Assembly (NCBI GenBank): GCA_001871125.1
Contig: MNXB01000105.1
Coordinates: 1-63,060, forward strand
Source of the DNA: Elusimicrobia bacterium CG1_02_37_114
Lineage (GTDB): Bacteria; Elusimicrobiota; Endomicrobiia; CG1-02-37-114
DNA length: 63,060 nt
Reading direction: 5' to 3'
Made by a program: the position numbers and the translations under genes. The notes under the pieces are model-generated. The model was not told the DNA's origin. It ran no database searches and worked only from the letters and a program-made list of their open reading frames with translations. Below are positions 10,882 to 22,726 of this stretch, piece after piece. Positions within the stretch are counted from its first letter, which is position 1. Every line of letters starts with the position of its first letter.

Positions 10882-12948
10882 ATGAAGAAAGAAAAGAATT
10901 TCTGTATAGTAAGAAATGTTTATCCGGAATTGGATGGCGGCAGATACCCGGTCAAAACAGAGATAGATAGAATTTTCATTGTTTCGGCAGATATCGTTTT
11001 TTCTGAAAATAAAATGCTCTCCGTTTCTGAAGTATACCTGAAATATCGCAATAAGCGCCTATCTAAAAAGTGGAATAATGTTGAGATGCAAAATATTGGG
11101 TGGCAGGGTCGCCAGTCACAACGAATAAGTTGTGACATGCCTTGGCGAGCCACCGAGTCGGTGAGGTGGCGGGGAGAGATAAAATTTGATTTACCTGGCA
11201 TCTATGAGTATACGATTGAAGTAGAGTCAGCTCTGCCCCCGAATAAAATCGTCAGGATAGAATATGAGCATATCCTTGAACTCGTTGTTGATTTACCGCA
11301 AGCAAGATTTGCCAACTGGTATGAAATGTTTCACAGGTCCCAGGGTAAAATTCCTAATAAGAGTGCAACATTTAAAGATTGTGAAGAAAGACTTATTGAT
11401 ATAAAAAGTATGGGGTTTAATGTCATATACTTGCCTCCAATACATCCCATCGGAAGGACAAATCGTAAAGGTCCCAATAACAGTGTTAATGCAGGAACTG
11501 ATGACCCGGGCTGTCCCTGGGCAATAGGTAATGAGCAGGGGGGGCATAAGTCTGTCAATCTCGAACTGGGAACTCTTGATGACTTTGAGAAATTTGTCCA
11601 TAGAGCAAAAGAATTTGGAATAGAAATTGCACTTGATATTGCGTTTAACTGTTCGTATGACCATCCGTACGTAAAAGAACATCCGGGCTGGTTTTTCTGG
11701 ACCCCCGACGGACAAATTAGATTTGCGGAAAACCCGCCCAAAAAATACGAAGATGTCTGCATGCTGAACTTTTACCCGAAAGACAGGCAGGAGATGTGGG
11801 ATGAAATGAAGGATATTTTTGTTTTCTGGATAAATTGTGGTGTAAAAATATTTCGGGTGGATAATCCGCATACAAAACCTACTGAATTCTGGACCTGGGT
11901 AATAAAGGAAATAAAGAAAGAGTACCCGGAAGTAATATTTTTTGCCGAAGCATTTACATATTATGAAAAGTTAGAGGGATTGGCAAAGGCTGGATTTACG
12001 CAGTCATATACTTATTTTACCTGGAGGAACAATAAGAACGAACTTCTGGAATATTTCACCAAACTTACACAGAGTGATTTAAGACAGTTCCTTCGTGCGA
12101 ATTTATTTGTTAACACTCCTGATATTTGCCCGCCGATTATACAGACAGGAGGCGTACCGGCATTTAAGATGAGAGCGGCATTGGCTTCTACTCTTTCCTC
12201 GCTGTATGGTATCTACAATGGTTATGAACTGTGTGAAGCGGATGCTTTTCCAGGGACGGAGATATACAGAAATTCAGAGAAGTATCAGTATAAGGTCTGG
12301 GACTGGAATAGACCGGGTAACATTAAGGACTATATCTCCAAACTCAACAGGGTAAGAGAAGAAAACCCTGCATTACATTATTATGATAATTTAAGATTTC
12401 ATGAATCAACGAATGATAATGTTATGGTTTATAGTAAAATATCGCCCGATGGAAAGAATATTATCATTACTGTAGTGAATTTAGATGTCAAAAATATCCA
12501 GGACAGCAGATTGACTCTACCTCTTGAAGAATTTGGTATCGGTTCCGGTGAAGAATACAATGTGCTGGAACTTATTACAGGGAATGAATATACATGGAAA
12601 GGAAGAGAAAACTACGTGAGGCTGGACCCCTATATTGAACCGGTATATATTTTTAGAGTTGAAAAATCTAAAAAATCTAAACAGTACAAAATAGATTCCT
12701 CGTCGGAATCTTCCAGACTTGCAAAACAGCATGGCGAGGAGTTTTTCAGACTCAGGGAAAAGGTTATAAAAGACTATGATTTTTATGCCAGAAGAGACTT
12801 TGTTTCTTTATATTATAGTGAGATTATCCGGCGCGTATATACAGGTCCGACATATGACAGAACTTACGAAGAAGAAATAAACAAAGTCAGCAGACAATAT
12901 GGCTATCTGACAATTATTAATGCTTATATGACCACCGCCGGACATTAG
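10882..12948 (+). CDS. glgE: Alpha-1,4-glucan:maltose-1-phosphate maltosyltransferase (GH13_3)
   Basis: YLPPIHPIG..RKGPNN, GGHKSV, ENPPKKYED, FRVDNPHTKP, FFAEAFT, GFTQSYTYFTWRN, NLFVNTPDI. Confidence 0.92.
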   Translation: MKKEKNFCIVRNVYPELDGGRYPVKTEIDRIFIVSADIVFSENKMLSVSEVYLKYRNKRLSKKWNNVEMQNIGWQGRQSQRISCDMPWRATESVRWRGEIKFDLPGIYEYTIEVESALPPNKIVRIEYEHILELVVDLPQARFANWYEMFHRSQGKIPNKSATFKDCEERLIDIKSMGFNVIYLPPIHPIGRTNRKGPNNSVNAGTDDPGCPWAIGNEQGGHKSVNLELGTLDDFEKFVHRAKEFGIEIALDIAFNCSYDHPYVKEHPGWFFWTPDGQIRFAENPPKKYEDVCMLNFYPKDRQEMWDEMKDIFVFWINCGVKIFRVDNPHTKPTEFWTWVIKEIKKEYPEVIFFAEAFTYYEKLEGLAKAGFTQSYTYFTWRNNKNELLEYFTKLTQSDLRQFLRANLFVNTPDICPPIIQTGGVPAFKMRAALASTLSSLYGIYNGYELCEADAFPGTEIYRNSEKYQYKVWDWNRPGNIKDYISKLNRVREENPALHYYDNLRFHESTNDNVMVYSKISPDGKNIIITVVNLDVKNIQDSRLTLPLEEFGIGSGEEYNVLELITGNEYTWKGRENYVRLDPYIEPVYIFRVEKSKKSKQYKIDSSSESSRLAKQHGEEFFRLREKVIKDYDFYARRDFVSLYYSEIIRRVYTGPTYDRTYEEEINKVSRQYGYLTIINAYMTTAGH
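11109..11170 (+). repeat. Two-hairpin element G, copy 1, in-frame inside glgE
   Basis: tcgcca-gtcacaac-GAATAA-gttgtgac-atgcct-tggcga-gccacc-GAGTCGGTGA-ggtggc. Confidence 0.8.
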
Positions 12949-15052: not shown

Positions 15053-16628
<1,576 letters not shown>

Positions 16629-17106: not shown

Positions 17107-17634
17107 GGATGAAATGATATGGCCAAGTAAGAAAGGGCATACAGTGGATCTCTTGGTGAAGGTCGTTGATGAAGGCCGTGGTAAACTGCGATAAGGTGCG
17201 GTGAGGAGCAAACATCCTGTGATCCGCACATTGCCGAATGGGGAAAACCGCCCCGATGCAAATCGGGGCACTATGATATGAATACATAGTATCATAGGAA
17301 TAACCCAGGGAAGTGAAACATCTCAGTACCTGGAGGAAAAGAAATCGAAAGAGATTCCCTTAGTAGTGGCGAGCGAACAGGGAAGAGCCTAAACTTGTCC
17401 CGATGCAAATCGGGATGAGGGTTGTAGGGTTTTAACAGTCCCGCTTCGGTGGGACAGGAAGTTACAAATGGAGTCTATAGTTGAATGGTCCTGGAATGGC
17501 CAACCATAGATGGTGAAAGTCCAGTAGATAAAATAGATTTCACTTCCTCGTTAGAATTCCTGAGTATCATTGAACACGTGAAATTCAGTGAGAATCCGCC
17601 CGGACCATCGGGCAAGGCTAAATACGAACCTTCA

Positions 17635-17665
<31 letters not shown>

Positions 17666-19242
17666 ATGAAAAGAACCCCTGATGGGGAGTGAAATAGAAC
17701 ATGAAACTGTATGTCTACAAGCAGTCAAAGCACTATGTCCTGATTCCGAGCAATCGGGAGAAGGAAATGTGCGATGGCGTGCCTGTTGAAGAATGATCCG
17801 GCGAGTTACTTTAACGACCAAGTTTAAGTCCGGACTGAATAGGTCCGGATGAAACGTAGGGAAACCGAGTCTTAATAGGGCGAATAGGTCGTTGGAGTAG
17901 ACCCGAAGCCAAGTGATCTATCCCTGGCCAGGTTGAATCCTGCGTAATAGCAGGAGGAGGACCGAACCATTTAGTGTTGCAAAACTACTGGATGAGCTTG
18001 GGATAGGGGTGAAAGGCTAATCTAACTTGGTGATAGCTGGTTCTCCCCGAAATAGCTTTAGGGCTAGCCTGATAGTTTGAATTCGAGGGGTAGAGCACTG
18101 GATAATGTAGGACCTGCAACCCAGGTTCCGAATTTAACCAAACTCCGAATACTCGAATGGACACTATTGGAGTCAGTTTGTGCGGGATAAGCTGCACATG
18201 CAAAAGGGGAACAGCCCAGACCATCGGTTAAGGTCCCAAAATTGAAGTTAAGTGGAAAAGGACGTATTATTGCAAAGACAGCTAGGAGGTTAGCTTAGAA
18301 GCAGCTATCCTTTAAAGAGTGCGTAACAGCTCACTAGTCAAGCGATTTTGCGCCGAAAATGTCCGGGGCTAAACTTCATACCGAAACCATGGCTGTCCCG
18401 ATGTAAGTCCGAATTTGGACTATCGGGACGGGGTAGGGGAGCGTTCTATCAGCAATGAAGATAGACCGAGAGGACTATTGGAGTTGATGGAAGTGAGGAT
18501 GTCGGAATAAGTAGCGATAATGGTTGTGAAAATCAACCACGCCGAAAGCCCAAGGTTTCCTTGAGCAATGTTCGTCAGCTCAGGGTTAGTCGGTCCTAAG
18601 CTGAGGCCGAAAGGCGTAAGCGATGGATATCCGGTTAATATTCCGGAACCATTCTGGAGTCGTTAGTCACTAACTTTGTGCGCATTAGAGTATGGTTATC
18701 TCCGTGTTGAATTACGGGGTTTAATCCCGCCGTGAGGCGGGAGAATACGACCCTCGAGAAATCGGGGGGAAGTAACTGAATCTGGTGCCAAGAAAAGCAA
18801 AGTTTAGGAGTCTCCGGGATGACCGTACCGCAAACCAACACAGGTGGGTAGGGTGAATAACCTAAGGCGCGCGAGTGATTTGCCGCTAAGGAACTCGGCA
18901 AAATTGCCCTGTAACTTCGGGATAAAGGGTTCCCCCGATTTATCGGGGGATTCAATAAAGAGTCTCATGCGACTGTTTAACAAAAACACAGGTCTCTGCT
19001 TAAATCGTAAGATGATGTATAGGGACTGACGCCTGCCCGGTGCTAGAAGGTCAAGAGGAGTTGTCATCTCTGACGCAAGTTGGGGAGAAGCGATGAATTT
19101 AAGCCCTAGTAAACGGCGGCCGTAACTATTGTTTGGACCACAGTAGTTGTAAAATCTGGCTATATGCTGGAAAATCCTGGTATGCTAACAGTACTCCTGT
19201 TAATGTTGATAAGAACAGGACGTGACAATCTGTTAGATAGGG

Positions 19243-19303
19243 CTGCGTATTCGCACGAATAAGTGCGAATGAGTTACGCAGGACGGCGAGAAGGTGAGCC
19301 GGC
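19243..19303 (+). repeat. Element G, copy 2, inside the L1917 intron
   Basis: ctgcgta-ttcgcac-GAATAA-gtgcgaa-tgagt-tacgcag-gacggc-GAGAAGGTGA-gccggc. Confidence 0.8.
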
Positions 19304-19340
19304 GGGACAATCAGCAGGAAAGACCTGAAATGAGGGCTCC

Positions 19341-19835
19341 ATGCGAACAGAAACAGGCTATTACTTAGCAGGTTTTGCAGACGGAGAAGGAAGTTTTAAT
19401 ATTTCTTTCAGACCGAGGCAAGATTATAAGTTACCGTGGAAAATCTCTCTCTGCTTTAACATTTCCCAGAAGGATAAAGTTATTCTGTCGTTATTCAAAC
19501 GTTATTTGGTTTGTGGAACATTAAGGAGCAGACCCGATGGTGTTTGGTATTACGAAGTAAATAACTTCAATGCGATATGGGAAAAGGTAATACCTTTCTT
19601 TAAGAAATATAGATTCTTGTCCGCTAAGAAAAAACGTGACTTCTCAAAATTTTGCCAGATAGCAGAAATGGTAAAAAAAGGGGAGCATCTTAAAGAAGAT
19701 GGTATCAGAAGAATTGTTGAAATAAGACGAGAGATGAATGACGGTGGTAAACGCAAGTATAGCAATACGGAGATCCTAAGTAAATTTCAGGAATCCCCAG
19801 AGACTATACGCCAGATCCCGATAACTCGGGAATGA
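19341..19835 (+). CDS. Single-motif LAGLIDADG homing endonuclease (L1917 intron)
   Basis: YYLAGFADGEGSFNI, FNISQK, IPFFKKY. Confidence 0.93.
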   Translation: MRTETGYYLAGFADGEGSFNISFRPRQDYKLPWKISLCFNISQKDKVILSLFKRYLVCGTLRSRPDGVWYYEVNNFNAIWEKVIPFFKKYRFLSAKKKRDFSKFCQIAEMVKKGEHLKEDGIRRIVEIRREMNDGGKRKYSNTEILSKFQESPETIRQIPITRE

Positions 19836-19890
19836 TATAGTCCGGTCTCCGATGAAAATCGGAGTTAACATAAACGAACGGTCCTAAGGT

Positions 19891-20563
19891 TAGTTTAATG
19901 CTAGCCTGTTCCGGTAGTAATATCGGAAGTAATATTTAACTATATGCGGGGAACTCCCCAAAAAATGTTTGATACTAGTCTATTCATTTGAATGGGACAG
20001 TAAAAAATCAACATACATGAGGACAATCCGCAGGGAAGGCATATTATGGATAATAATATGAACCCTCAGAGACTACACGTTGAATATCCGAATTGCAACA
20101 GCTTGACTCCTGACTGGATTGTGGGATTCGTAGACGGGGAAGGTTGTTTTCACATAGGGATAAATAAGAATGACGAAGTTAAATCCGGGTACCAGGTTTT
20201 ACCCGAATTGACAGTCGTCCAACACAAACGAGACATTCAACTTCTTTATCGATTACGCACATTTATGAAATGTGGCGTGGTAAGAAGTAATCATGGAGAC
20301 CGTTTCTGTTGGCGTGTCAGATGTCTTAAAAACCTTGTGGAAATAATTCTTCCATTTTTTGAAAAGCATCCATTGAAATCAAAAAAAAATATTGAATTTC
20401 ACAGATTTGCAAAGGTGGTGCGAATGATGGAGAAAGATAAACACCTTACCCAGGAAGGATTCCAGAAGATTATTAAAATTGCGGAAGAGATGAACAGGCA
20501 AGAGCAAAGAGAAATTCGGATAAAGATATAGTCCACACTTCGATGAAAATCGAGGATTTTGTG
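19891..20563 (+). mobile_element. Group I intron at 23S position L1931
   Basis: Follows ctaaggt (U1931), ends in G before agcgaaattcc; Q aatccgcag, R tcagagactacacg, S aagatatagtcc. Confidence 0.93.
20046..20531 (+). CDS. Single-motif LAGLIDADG homing endonuclease (L1931 intron)
   Basis: WIVGFVDGEGCFHI, TVVQH, ILPFFEKHPL. Confidence 0.93.
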   Translation: MDNNMNPQRLHVEYPNCNSLTPDWIVGFVDGEGCFHIGINKNDEVKSGYQVLPELTVVQHKRDIQLLYRLRTFMKCGVVRSNHGDRFCWRVRCLKNLVEIILPFFEKHPLKSKKNIEFHRFAKVVRMMEKDKHLTQEGFQKIIKIAEEMNRQEQREIRIKI

Positions 20564-20610
<47 letters not shown>

Positions 20611-21053
20611 CGAAATGAGAACTGTCTCGGCGGCAAACTCGGCGAAATTGTGGTGTCCGTGAAGACGCGGACTACCTGCGGATAGACGAAAAGACCCCGT
20701 GGAGCTTTACTATAGCTTAATATTGAATTACGGGGTAGGATGCGTAGCATAGGTGGGAGGCTTTGATTCCCCGATTTTGGTCGGGGAGGAGCCGCCAGTG
20801 AAATACCACCCTTTCTGCTTTGTGGTTCTAATTCTAGTCCGTGAAACCGGACGGAAGACAGTGTTAGGTGGGTAGTTTGACTGGGGCGGTTACCTCCCAA
20901 AGAGTAACGGAGGCGTTCAAAGGTACCCTCATCCTGAATAAAAGTCAGGAGTTGAGTGCAAAGGCATAAGGGTGCTTGACTGCGAGTCCGACGGGACAAG
21001 CAGGTACGAAAGTAGGACTTAGTGATCCGGTGGTTGCGTATGGAAGTGCCATC

Positions 21054-21090
<37 letters not shown>

Positions 21091-21121
21091 TATCGAGCCC
21101 GAGAGTCCATATCGACGGCTC

Positions 21122-21162
<41 letters not shown>

Positions 21163-21657
21163 GAGCAGGTCCCAAGGGTTTGGCTGTTCGCCAATTAAAG
21201 CGGTACGTGAGCTGGGTTCAGTACGTCGTGAGACAGTACGGTCTCTATCTTCCGTAGGTGTTGGAAACTTGAGGGGAGCTGGCCTTAGTACGAGAGGACC
21301 AGGCTGGACAAGCCTCTGGTGTGCCTGCTATCGCGTCAGCGGTATTAGCAGGGTAGCCATTGCTTGGATAGAATAACCGCTGAAAGCATCTAAGCGGGAA
21401 GTCAACCCTAAAACAAGGTTTCCCTCCCGATGAAAGTCGGGACTGAAGGTCACCAGAAGACTACTGGTTTTATAGGTCGGGTGTGTAAGTCCAGTAATGG
21501 ATTGAGCTAACCGATACTAATCGACCGTGCGGCTTGGCCATATCTTTTGATCCAAAACATAAAAGTTTAAATGTACAGGACGTGGAAATTATTTTTGTAT
21601 TTCCTTGATTTTCCTGCCTTTTACTTTTTATAAAACAATCATTTGTTGAATTTAATT

Positions 21658-21777
21658 TCTCGGTAGTTTTACCGGTGGGGCAACACCTGTTCCCATTCCG
21701 AACACAGCAGTTAAGCCCACCAGGGCCGATGGTACTTGGTGCCAATCCGCACCCGGGAGAGTAGGTTACTACCGGGA
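21658..21777 (+). rRNA. rrf: 5S rRNA
   Basis: cacctgttcccattccgaacacagcagttaag, gccgatggtac, gggagagtagg; terminal stem. Confidence 0.96.
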
Positions 21778-21922: not shown

Positions 21923-22675
21923 TTGTTTTGTATAATCTGCTGTTTCAGTGGTATCCTTTATAGTTCGGAAACCCTGGATACAGCAGAACAGATTTCAAAA
22001 GGGAAATTTCGCACAGTTGTTTATTACACACAGACGAAGGCAAAACCAACCTTTCAGATGGTGGATTTTTCAACGACAACCGGTTGGGGGATAAATAAGG
22101 TTGATGGAGATAGTTCCTTTGGAAACGTAGTCGTTAAACTTGTGTTAAATCCTTTTGATAAATTGAATTGGTGGGCAAGAGCGGGAATGGTATCTGATTA
22201 TAAATTAGGGGTCCCTTCAACCGATACTCCTAAAATTGAATACACAAATATCTCTTCTTATAATGGCTATACTATTGGAGCGGGAGCAAAATATCAGGTT
22301 TTTCCTCAGACAGATTTCAATTGCGGTATTTGTTTGGACTTTGGTGTTGTTTATACTAATTACATTTTTAATAGAAAATATCAGGAAAATATCGGATATT
22401 CTGATTTATCAGGTACTAAATTTGAAGATACTGAATTTCACGCAAAATTTAATCTCAGCAGGAAGATTCGCAAGACAGAGCCTTATGGCGGCGTTAGTAT
22501 TTACAGAAACTGGTATAAATTTGGAAGCAATTCAGGGACAAAAGACAATATAAATGTTTTCGCAGGTTTAAAAGTCAAACTGCGTCAGTTGAAATGGTTA
22601 ATGTGTGAGGCGAATCTGATTGGCGAAACCAGCCTGTCAGCTGGTTTTTGTATGGCTGTGGGTTCACACGAATAA
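21923..22675 (+). CDS. Putative outer-membrane beta-barrel protein (start uncertain)
   Basis: Hydrophobic signal-like N-terminus, alternating aromatic beta-strand pattern (YTIGAGAKY, EPYGGVSIY, LSAGF). Confidence 0.55.
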   Translation: MFCIICCFSGILYSSETLDTAEQISKGKFRTVVYYTQTKAKPTFQMVDFSTTTGWGINKVDGDSSFGNVVVKLVLNPFDKLNWWARAGMVSDYKLGVPSTDTPKIEYTNISSYNGYTIGAGAKYQVFPQTDFNCGICLDFGVVYTNYIFNRKYQENIGYSDLSGTKFEDTEFHAKFNLSRKIRKTEPYGGVSIYRNWYKFGSNSGTKDNINVFAGLKVKLRQLKWLMCEANLIGETSLSAGFCMAVGSHE

Positions 22676-22716
22676 GTGTGAACAAGATCCACAGGACGGC
22701 GAGTCGGTGAGCCGTC
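22656..22716 (+). repeat. Element G, copy 3; its GAATAA loop supplies the ORF stop codon
   Basis: ctgtgg-gttcacac-GAATAA-gtgtgaac-aagat-ccacag-gacggc-GAGTCGGTGA-gccgtc. Confidence 0.85.
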
Positions 22717-22726
22717 GGGGAAAGCT

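Follow-up and report, generated by a model that had tools for sequence, protein, structure and literature searches.

The DNA analyzed here (the window) is a 63,060-nt stretch from Elusimicrobia bacterium CG1_02_37_114 (contig MNXB01000105.1 of assembly GCA_001871125.1, positions 1 to 63,060, forward strand; the same contig is also deposited as GCA_002785445.1), and the subject of this study is a pair of group I introns that interrupts the 23S rRNA gene in it. The host is an uncultivated groundwater organism with a GC content of 39% and an unsplit rpoC gene, and its 16S rRNA was at most 78% identical to that of any locus compared, an Omnitrophota metagenome-assembled genome included. A complete bacterial 23S rRNA gene was matched by the Rfam family LSU_rRNA_bacteria (2529 bits, model positions 1-2925), occupying 4421 nt of the window as against the 2925 positions of the model. 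The gene, its operon and the two introns are arranged as follows.

15053-16627, forward strand: 16S rRNA gene, followed by two tRNA genes
17121-21541, forward strand: 23S rRNA gene
19130-19876, forward strand: intron 1, 747 nt, first bases TGTTTGGACC, last bases ATAAACG, omega-G at 19876
19877-19890, forward strand: micro-exon aacggtcctaaggt (the same as AACGGUCCUAAGGU), 14 nt, E. coli positions 1918-1931
19891-20563, forward strand: intron 2, 673 nt, first bases TAGTTTAAT, last bases TTTTGTG, omega-G at 20563
21659-21777, forward strand: 5S rRNA gene

The 23S gene is interrupted twice in helices 69 to 71 (H69-H71), directly after E. coli U1917 and directly after U1931, with the 14-nt micro-exon left between the two insertions. 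The exon context around the insertions reads CCGTAACTAT, then AACGGTCCTAAGGT, then AGCGAAATTCC; the upstream exon ends in GGCGGCCGTAACTAT at 19129 (E. coli U1917), and the downstream exon restarts at 20564 with AGCGAAATTCC (AGCGAAATTCCTTGTCGG in a longer reading). The intron boundaries cannot be shifted, because the flanking bases on either side differ, and reading of the sequence reproduced to the base the coordinates, the lengths of 747 and 673 nt and the 14-nt spacing given in the original prediction, which had been made from the sequence alone. The two introns account for 1420 of the approximately 1496 extra bases of the gene, indicating that it carries no third large insertion. An arrangement as a twintron was rejected, as the 14 nt between the introns are genuine exon and each intron has its own complete set of helices P1 to P9.

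Intron 2 was matched by the Rfam model Intron_gpI with 69.4 bits, above the threshold of 50, and the model was covered from end to end. The following elements were placed by this alignment.

19901-19907, forward strand: internal guide sequence CUAGCCU of intron 2 (Rfam P1 alignment)
19945-19951 with 20027-20032, forward strand: P4 of intron 2
20070-20075 with 20529-20533, forward strand: P7 of intron 2
20087-20094 with 20513-20520, forward strand: P8 of intron 2, with a 418-nt loop
20540-20553, forward strand: P9 of intron 2, the 3' core as a whole spanning 20513-20553 in the Rfam alignment

In the P1 helix of intron 2, GCCU (19904-19907) pairs with AGGU of the exon (19887-19890), the splice-site U forming a U.G pair, and CUA pairs with UAG of the intron itself (19891-19893). 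On this predicted structure, intron 2 is assigned to the L1931 family of group I introns. Its P4, TGCGGGG with TCCGCA, represents a different L1931 type from that of introns without an open reading frame (ORF) found at the same site in many phyla (loci L002-L116). The core of the latter is nearly that of the L1917 intron in the same gene (..AAATCTGGCTATATGCTGG..CAATCAGCAGGAAAG..), and these ORF-less L1931 introns look like L1917 paralogues moved by 14 nt.

The elements of intron 1 were placed as listed below.

19124-19129, forward strand: 5' exon strand of P1 of intron 1, AACUAU, in which base 19129 is U1917 and forms the U.G pair
19135-19139, forward strand: P10 guide GGACC of intron 1, pairing with GGUCC of the micro-exon (19880-19884), the longest exon/guide helix found
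19143-19148, forward strand: internal guide sequence GUAGUU (3' strand of P1), complementary to AACUAU and conserved in the aligned L1917 introns
19155-19160 with 19810-19815, forward strand: P3 of intron 1
19165-19170 with 19311-19316, forward strand: P4 of intron 1
19324-19330 with 19785-19791, forward strand: P6 of intron 1
19801-19864, forward strand: catalytic 3' core of intron 1 (Rfam alignment and RNAalifold)
19801-19806 with 19838-19842, forward strand: P7 of intron 1
19816-19831, forward strand: P8 of intron 1
19847-19864, forward strand: P9 of intron 1

The core of intron 1 aligned throughout with 27 L1917 introns from other genomes that carry no homing endonuclease gene. An RNAalifold analysis of intron 1 together with 12 L1917 introns recovered P1, P3, P4, P5/P5a, P6, P8 and P9, and at least two standard pair types were seen in 31 of the 68 pairs of this 13-sequence alignment. 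A GACC-type element upstream of the internal guide sequence was likewise conserved across the family alignment. Introns at the same sites in four other loci (L118, L117, L078 and L077) were homology matches to both introns of the window. By these comparisons intron 1 is placed in the L1917 family of group I introns. The original prediction of two group I introns at L1917 and L1931, both known bacterial sites, is supported by the comparisons above and by published bacterial introns.

Contigs from the same communities (DNA runs X2-X4 and RNA run X25) were also found in which 19323 is joined to 19792 through a 19-nt hairpin, TCCAGGCAAAATGCCTGGA. The joint comes from a closely related intron at L1917 that has no endonuclease gene. 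It marks the P6 loop as the place where the ORF of intron 1 was inserted, and it shows that forms with and without the ORF occur side by side within these communities.

We then considered how the two introns share the micro-exon. It had been proposed that their P1 and P10 pairings must overlap, and the placements given above contradict this. The P10 of intron 1 lies at 19880-19884 (E. coli 1921-1925, micro-exon bases 4-8) and the P1 of intron 2 at 19887-19890 (E. coli 1928-1931, bases 11-14), so that the two helices stand side by side with a 2-nt gap and do not compete. Among 52 doubly occupied genes (the window and 51 others listed), the P1 of intron 2 takes 7 exon bases (1925-1931) in 33, and the P10 of intron 1 falls mostly on 1920-1924 or 1920-1925, with an overlap between the two of at most one base. 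Intron 1 would require only the upstream exon, through P1 at 19124-19129, and micro-exon bases 4-8, through P10, and intron 2 would require only micro-exon bases 11-14, through P1, and the downstream exon. Both introns, which we infer to be self-splicing, would leave the rRNA precursor by the ordinary guanosine-initiated reaction. Since each guide takes its own part of the micro-exon, the guide anatomy leads us to expect that the introns splice independently of each other, whichever goes first, and no splicing order need be imposed.

Each intron contains one ORF for a LAGLIDADG protein, here called HE1 and HE2.

19341-19835, forward strand: HE1, 164 aa, single-motif LAGLIDADG protein, Pfam PF00961 (LAGLIDADG_1), E 1.5e-21
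20046-20531, forward strand: HE2, 161 aa (157 aa from a start at 20058), single-motif LAGLIDADG protein, PF00961, E 6.6e-26

The HE1 ORF starts in the P6 loop, with GAGGG located 8 nt upstream of its ATG, runs through P6', P7, P3' and P8 and ends with a TGA stop codon in J8/7. From its start in P6, the HE2 ORF passes through P7, P3' and then the 5' strand of P8; its body occupies the P8 loop, and its TAG stop codon lies inside the 3' strand of P7 of intron 2. The full LAGLIDADG_1 profile was matched in one stretch by residues 9-107 of HE1 and by residues 25-125 of HE2, in agreement with the original prediction of an intact single-motif LAGLIDADG ORF in each intron. Homologues of HE1 in the Protein Data Bank (PDB) were half-domains of the I-SmaMI/I-OnuI/I-PanMI type and the single-domain structures 3e54 and 5gkk. 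The best PDB match of HE2 was single-domain 5gkk, annotated as 'putative homing endonuclease' (E 6e-52), and HE2 likewise resembled half-domains of I-SmaMI, I-OnuI and I-PanMI. When aligned with the motif of the I-SmaMI/I-OnuI-type enzymes and 5gkk, both proteins retain the acidic metal-binding residue that closes the motif helix (YYLAGFADGEGSF and DWIVGFVDGEGCF; ..GFADGEG.. and ..GFVDGEG..). Comparison with the orthologues at L118, from the unclassified bacterium Yes70-31, gave ratios of nonsynonymous to synonymous substitution rates (dN/dS) of 0.06 for HE1 and 0.09 for HE2, indicating strong purifying selection on both genes. HE1 and HE2 are assigned to the homodimer-type, single-motif class of LAGLIDADG homing endonucleases, and cleavage of the intron-less target would be expected from the purifying selection and by analogy with the related enzyme I-ShaI.

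The L118 locus carries the closest relatives of both introns, with nucleotide identities of 82% and 74% and identities of 82% and 77% for the endonuclease proteins. Intron 1 was 82% identical to the same-site intron of L118 and 80% to that of L117, while the 23S exons on either side, highly conserved as they are, were only 75-76% identical to those of L118 and L117, below the 77.5% median to all other loci. The introns are thus more similar than the host rRNA between distant hosts, which fits movement between hosts.

LAGLIDADG endonucleases recognize targets of about 20-22 bp, centred near the insertion site. Two targets of this size overlap each other on the empty allele, on which each endonuclease would cut the 23S site and lead to copying of its own intron. 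A half-site of about 10-12 bp fits within the 14-nt micro-exon, so filling of one site should leave the target of the other enzyme intact. With a spacing greater than a LAGLIDADG half-site, neither endonuclease should block the other, and each could mobilize the other's intron. As is known from co-conversion in intron homing, repair from a doubly occupied donor would convert both introns together; such tracts normally reach well beyond the 14 bp that separate the introns, and the pair therefore probably travels as one cassette. The questions of splicing order and homing interference raised in the original prediction are in this way largely answered by the anatomy, in the form of predictions for which the intron pair of the window is a convenient natural substrate.

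Taken together, we consider it highly probable that the locus holds two side-by-side group I introns that are fixed and self-splicing, that each carry a homodimer-type LAGLIDADG endonuclease, and that are independently spliced and probably co-mobile. In a different account, the ORFs would be kept as maturases, or for some other role beneficial to the host, and the introns would be purely vertical passengers. Some LAGLIDADG proteins are maturases, and the introns of the window are fixed in a single-copy gene and leave no target in their own genome, yet their ORFs show the low dN/dS of about 0.06-0.09. The ORFs also overlap the ribozyme core, which is itself a constraint on sequence, but only ~14 codons at the end of HE1, and ~17 at the start and ~6 at the end of HE2, lie in this overlap. 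The greater likeness of the introns than of the host rRNA across hosts that are distant at the phylum level points instead to continuing horizontal homing, and the LAGLIDADG motifs keep their acidic residue. Moreover, I-ShaI, an enzyme of the same kind from the 23S hotspot 23IS7 of the candidate phyla radiation (CPR), cuts its insertion site in vitro (PMC11270868). We regard retention as maturases as unlikely, and continue with the reading of two homing introns.

To examine excision of the introns, we used assembled Logan metatranscriptome contigs from similar sites, matched at an identity of at least 99%. RNA contigs specific to the exons of this organism were present in four runs, at depths of 12.7-54 (X25), 57-95 (X26), 2.8 (X29) and 5.8 (X39). 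Intron 1 RNA had a depth of 0 in all four runs despite the flanking exons. Intron 2 RNA was at 0 in X26, and contigs identical to the window were recovered in X25, X29 and X39 at depths of 5-15, comparable to or above the exon contigs of the organism in X29 and X39. These contigs started at 19891 or 19892 and ended at 20563, without extending into intron 1 or into the micro-exon or the downstream exon on either side. DNA contamination would have covered intron 1 and the junctions equally, indicating that the intron 2 contigs represent excised RNA with the predicted ends. Both introns are therefore removed from the mature rRNA, and intron 2, abundant as RNA in situ, persists after excision, whereas intron 1 does not. 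Once spliced out, the two introns seem to be of very different stability.

Joints between 19129 and 20564 with AACGGTCCTAAGGT between them were abundant in the RNA data but were not counted, as they had only 18-21 nt of universally conserved flank and originate from the whole community. Contigs of X29 also joined 20196 to 19891 and 20563 to 20417, and those of X39 and X25 carried 2-5 unmatched bases at the ends of intron 2. The X29 joints were taken as a library artefact and not as circles of intron 2, since a permuted joint was also found in exon rRNA (17637 to 17155, X39). The permuted junctions are probably an artefact of these libraries, which are of the reverse transcription PCR type, and give no evidence for or against circles.

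Several observations weigh against the reading of two active, self-splicing, co-mobile introns. Intron 1 reached only 36 bits against Intron_gpI (RF00028), on its 3' core and under the threshold of 50 (local E 3.8e-7), a low score because the model misplaces the large ORF insertion in P6. The depth of RNA contigs is a poor proxy for RNA abundance, the excised form of intron 1 was unseen, and, with contigs only and approximately 30 nt on each side universally conserved, a ligated junction could not be assigned to the organism. HE1 begins 6 residues before the LAGLIDADG helix and is devoid of the N-terminal extension of about 25 residues present in its relatives; the HE1 frame of the latter opens about 25 codons upstream, in the P4/P5 region (..DNQQERPE..), which is out of frame in the window (19307-19343). 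Because this extension is missing, activity of HE1 is less certain than that of HE2. Finally, a single close relative with both introns, L118, is the whole basis for co-mobility.

Some of these points would also favor decayed relics, that is, insertions removed by host RNases to leave a fragmented 23S rRNA, as with intervening sequences, or a 23S pseudogene. Fragmented 23S rRNAs are common in bacteria, the ligated junction specific to the organism was not recovered, and intron 1, besides its score under the Rfam threshold, carries a foreign insertion of 61 nt. This insertion, however, sits at a peripheral junction, and both introns keep all their core helices, the P1 U.G pair and the omega-G intact. 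A break in H69-H71 is unlikely to be tolerated, as these helices belong to the large subunit's functional core. The rRNA operon is the sole one of the genome, its exon RNA is abundant on both sides of the introns, and the RNA of intron 2 ends exactly at the splice sites. Relics of this kind are in our view very improbable, and we retain the reading of two intact homing introns.

The physical linkage of the two introns was examined in metagenomic DNA. The intron region was present in at least 24 groundwater or aquifer metagenome runs, and it was covered with zero differences by single Logan contigs (k=31) from each of four independent runs (X2, 19014-20591; X3, 19014-20592; X1, 19150-20593; X4, 19150-20510). 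As the micro-exon measures 14 nt, each 31-mer across it holds at least 8 nt of both introns, and the molecule from which it derives must carry both. The contig depth over the introns was 22.5, 24.8, 6.8 and 90.6, as against 21.6, 20.9, ~7 and 73.7 over the single-copy glgE region; this equality indicates that the rRNA operon is single copy and that both introns are fixed. At least eight contigs from separate assemblies in ENA, NCBI (GCA_002785445.1) and JGI showed the same two-intron arrangement.

The original prediction had named as its possible refutation a chimeric assembly of two alleles or strains, each with one intron, merged across the conserved micro-exon. Metagenome assemblers do form chimeras at universally conserved flanks such as these, and on one contig (L124, ENA ERZ27293375 k141_696171) the first 127 nt, from the upstream exon, are only 79% identical, with all downstream sequence identical; but the spanning 31-mers without differences in four independent runs, the single-copy depth, the recurrence on at least eight assemblies and, at the contig level, no reported joint that skips just one intron with flanks specific to the organism leave a chimera scarcely credible. 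The divergent part of L124 (positions 1-127) itself reflects either chimeric assembly in the conserved H69 region or a different host with the same two introns.

The 61-nt insertion in intron 1 proved to be one of three copies in the window of a structured element.

11098-11173: copy C, part of the reading frame of a genuine glgE gene, 64.6 bits with covariance model R1
19243-19303, forward strand: copy A, a 61-nt insertion at the P5/P5a junction of intron 1 with GGG on both sides (whole element 19232-19306), 73.7 bits with covariance model R1
22645-22719: copy B, between an unannotated 250-aa ORF and rplJ, 79.7% identical to copy A over about 22651-22719

Contig L123 has an intron that matches intron 1 exactly except that copy A is absent, and the relatives at L117 and L118 are likewise without it. 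The sequence of the empty site is GTTAGATA-GGG-ACAATC, and that of the filled site is GGG, the 61 nt and GGG. Copies A and B differ by compensatory changes in their stems. Copy C forms an insertion of about 19 aa in domain N of GlgE; it was missing from all nine homologues compared and is fixed in the four DNA runs. The element is about 60-75 nt in length and comprises a first hairpin with the loop CGAAUAAG and a second of the form GCCGGC-GAG-NN-GGUGA-GCCGGC. A metagenome scan with the pattern CGAATAAG-N(14-30)-GGCGAGNNGGTGAGCC located it on at least 118 contigs (L128-L245) from many habitats, among them soils, sediments and groundwater, and the sequences of the loop and of the second hairpin were conserved across very different hosts. 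Changes on both sides were found in 15 of 19 pairs among 26 non-redundant copies, and the covariation score of 0.508 exceeded those of shuffled sequences (0.148) and of slid partners (0.055-0.14).

Elsewhere the element is multi-copy, sometimes tandem, and often located beside tRNA genes or in short intergenic gaps. Copies occupied the variable-loop position of degenerate tRNA-Pro(TGG) copies beside an intact tRNA-Pro (L218, 1840-2352; L197, L131 and L179). The repeated unit on L243 (4257-4700) comprises the element and the 3' end of tRNA-Gly, and on L177 (2677-2893) a tandem pair abuts tRNA-Leu. This distribution suggests an affinity for tRNA genes, or a tRNA-linked duplication unit.

No family of Rfam 15 matched the element, no match was found in the viral contigs of IMG/VR, and a literature search by sequence strings returned only irrelevant matches. 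A reading of the repeated 66-nt motif as a leader of rplJ (L10) was rejected, as the downstream genes were heterogeneous in the 118 contigs listed and there was no match to the Rfam L10_leader, and a riboswitch was rejected for want of a conserved neighbouring gene. The element showed no likeness to H42-H44 of the window's own rRNA, as would be expected of an rRNA mimic, and an integron attC site or a phage element was discounted because no R'/R'' boxes were seen by eye and no IMG/VR match was obtained. A general habit of in-frame coding was also rejected; the metagenome set gave only spurious GC-rich ORFs, with glgE as the one solid example. The behaviour of the element presumably resembles that of small insertion elements such as the Rickettsia palindromic elements. 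We tentatively suggest, at somewhat less than even chances, that 19243-19303 arose by recent insertion of a small element, structured and mobile, which may be undescribed, and that intron 1 is then a nested mobile element. If this is true, an insertion element lies inside a homing intron inside an rRNA gene, and the element could matter more than the intron pair should it prove undescribed.

The 250-aa ORF that precedes copy B (21923-22675, between the 5S rRNA gene and rplJ) had no Pfam match, and its last 8 codons come from copy B. By eye, its composition is like that of an outer-membrane beta-barrel.

For double occupancy in other genomes, we scanned one genome per GTDB species with the pattern G-AACGGTCCTAAGGT-B. 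Among at least 119 matches, at least 51 23S genes of GTDB representatives had both flanking exons and an insertion at each site, and at least 11 further matches ran off the end of the locus. Hosts among the matches listed included Gammaproteobacteria, Solirubrobacterales, Acidobacteriota, Nitrospirota, Gemmatimonadota, Chloroflexota, a Coxiella endosymbiont, Omnitrophota and others. By a strict motif test, 19 of the 51 genes listed had no endonuclease gene, 15 had one in intron 2 only, 12 in intron 1 only and 5 in both. The five with both were L118, L078, L088, L107 and L110, and all ten of their ORFs matched Pfam LAGLIDADG_1; they differ from the window in having no 61-nt element and a longer N-terminus in the HE1 orthologues. 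Double occupancy is therefore common, and the state with both endonucleases is less common but recurrent.

The co-occurrence of the two introns, pointed out in the original prediction, is not new, as the same pair of sites has been reported in Synechococcus sp. C9, in a diatom plastid and in CPR bacteria, in addition to the 51 or more GTDB genes. In Synechococcus sp. C9 an intron occupies each of L1917, L1931 and L2593, and every one of them contains a single-motif LAGLIDADG gene, full length in the first two (PMC1995217; Haugen et al. 2007). By its published description, the Synechococcus 23S gene is closely similar to that of the window, with introns of 743 and 666 nt and ORFs of 181 and 167 aa as compared with 747 and 673 nt and 164 and 161 aa in the window. 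Its L1917 ORF, like HE1, starts in P6 and runs through P7, P3 and P8 (PMC1995217), but stops in P9 and not in J8/7; Synechococcus sp. C9 is a cyanobacterium, which the host of the window is not, and the window is without an L2593 intron and has the additional 61-nt element. The plastid rrl gene of the diatom Navicula vanseea carries L1917 and L1931 introns of group IB4, each with a putative LAGLIDADG gene (2024, PMC11019260). Here, too, the likeness, with both sites filled, is by description, and the difference is that the genome is that of an organelle.

Single-motif LAGLIDADG genes are present in Thermotoga L1931 introns and in the L1917 intron of Thermotoga subterranea (PMC1995217, PMC11019260); each of these species has one of the two sites filled, not both (Table 1 of PMC1995217), whereas the window has both. 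For Coxiella burnetii, an L1951 intron is given in Table 1 of PMC1995217 and an L1917 IB2 intron with a LAGLIDADG gene is cited in PMC11019260. In our scan, a Coxiella endosymbiont (L022) had both L1917 and L1931 filled, by 670 and 287 nt, respectively.

Tsurumaki et al. (2024, PMC11270868) reported that LAGLIDADG_1 genes in the 23S genes of CPR bacteria are concentrated at 1917, 1931, 1952, 2593 and further positions, that one 23S gene can have as many as 16 insertions, and that I-ShaI dimerizes and cleaves the site at which it is inserted. The hotspots 23IS6-8 (1917, 1931 and 1952) resemble the introns of the window in that single-domain LAGLIDADG_1 genes reside in group I-like insertions, several to a gene. 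The organism of the window differs from CPR bacteria in having only two insertions, a 16S gene of normal length and an outer-membrane-like ORF. Thus, double occupancy of L1917 and L1931 is already a known pattern, of which the window is one more well-documented bacterial case.

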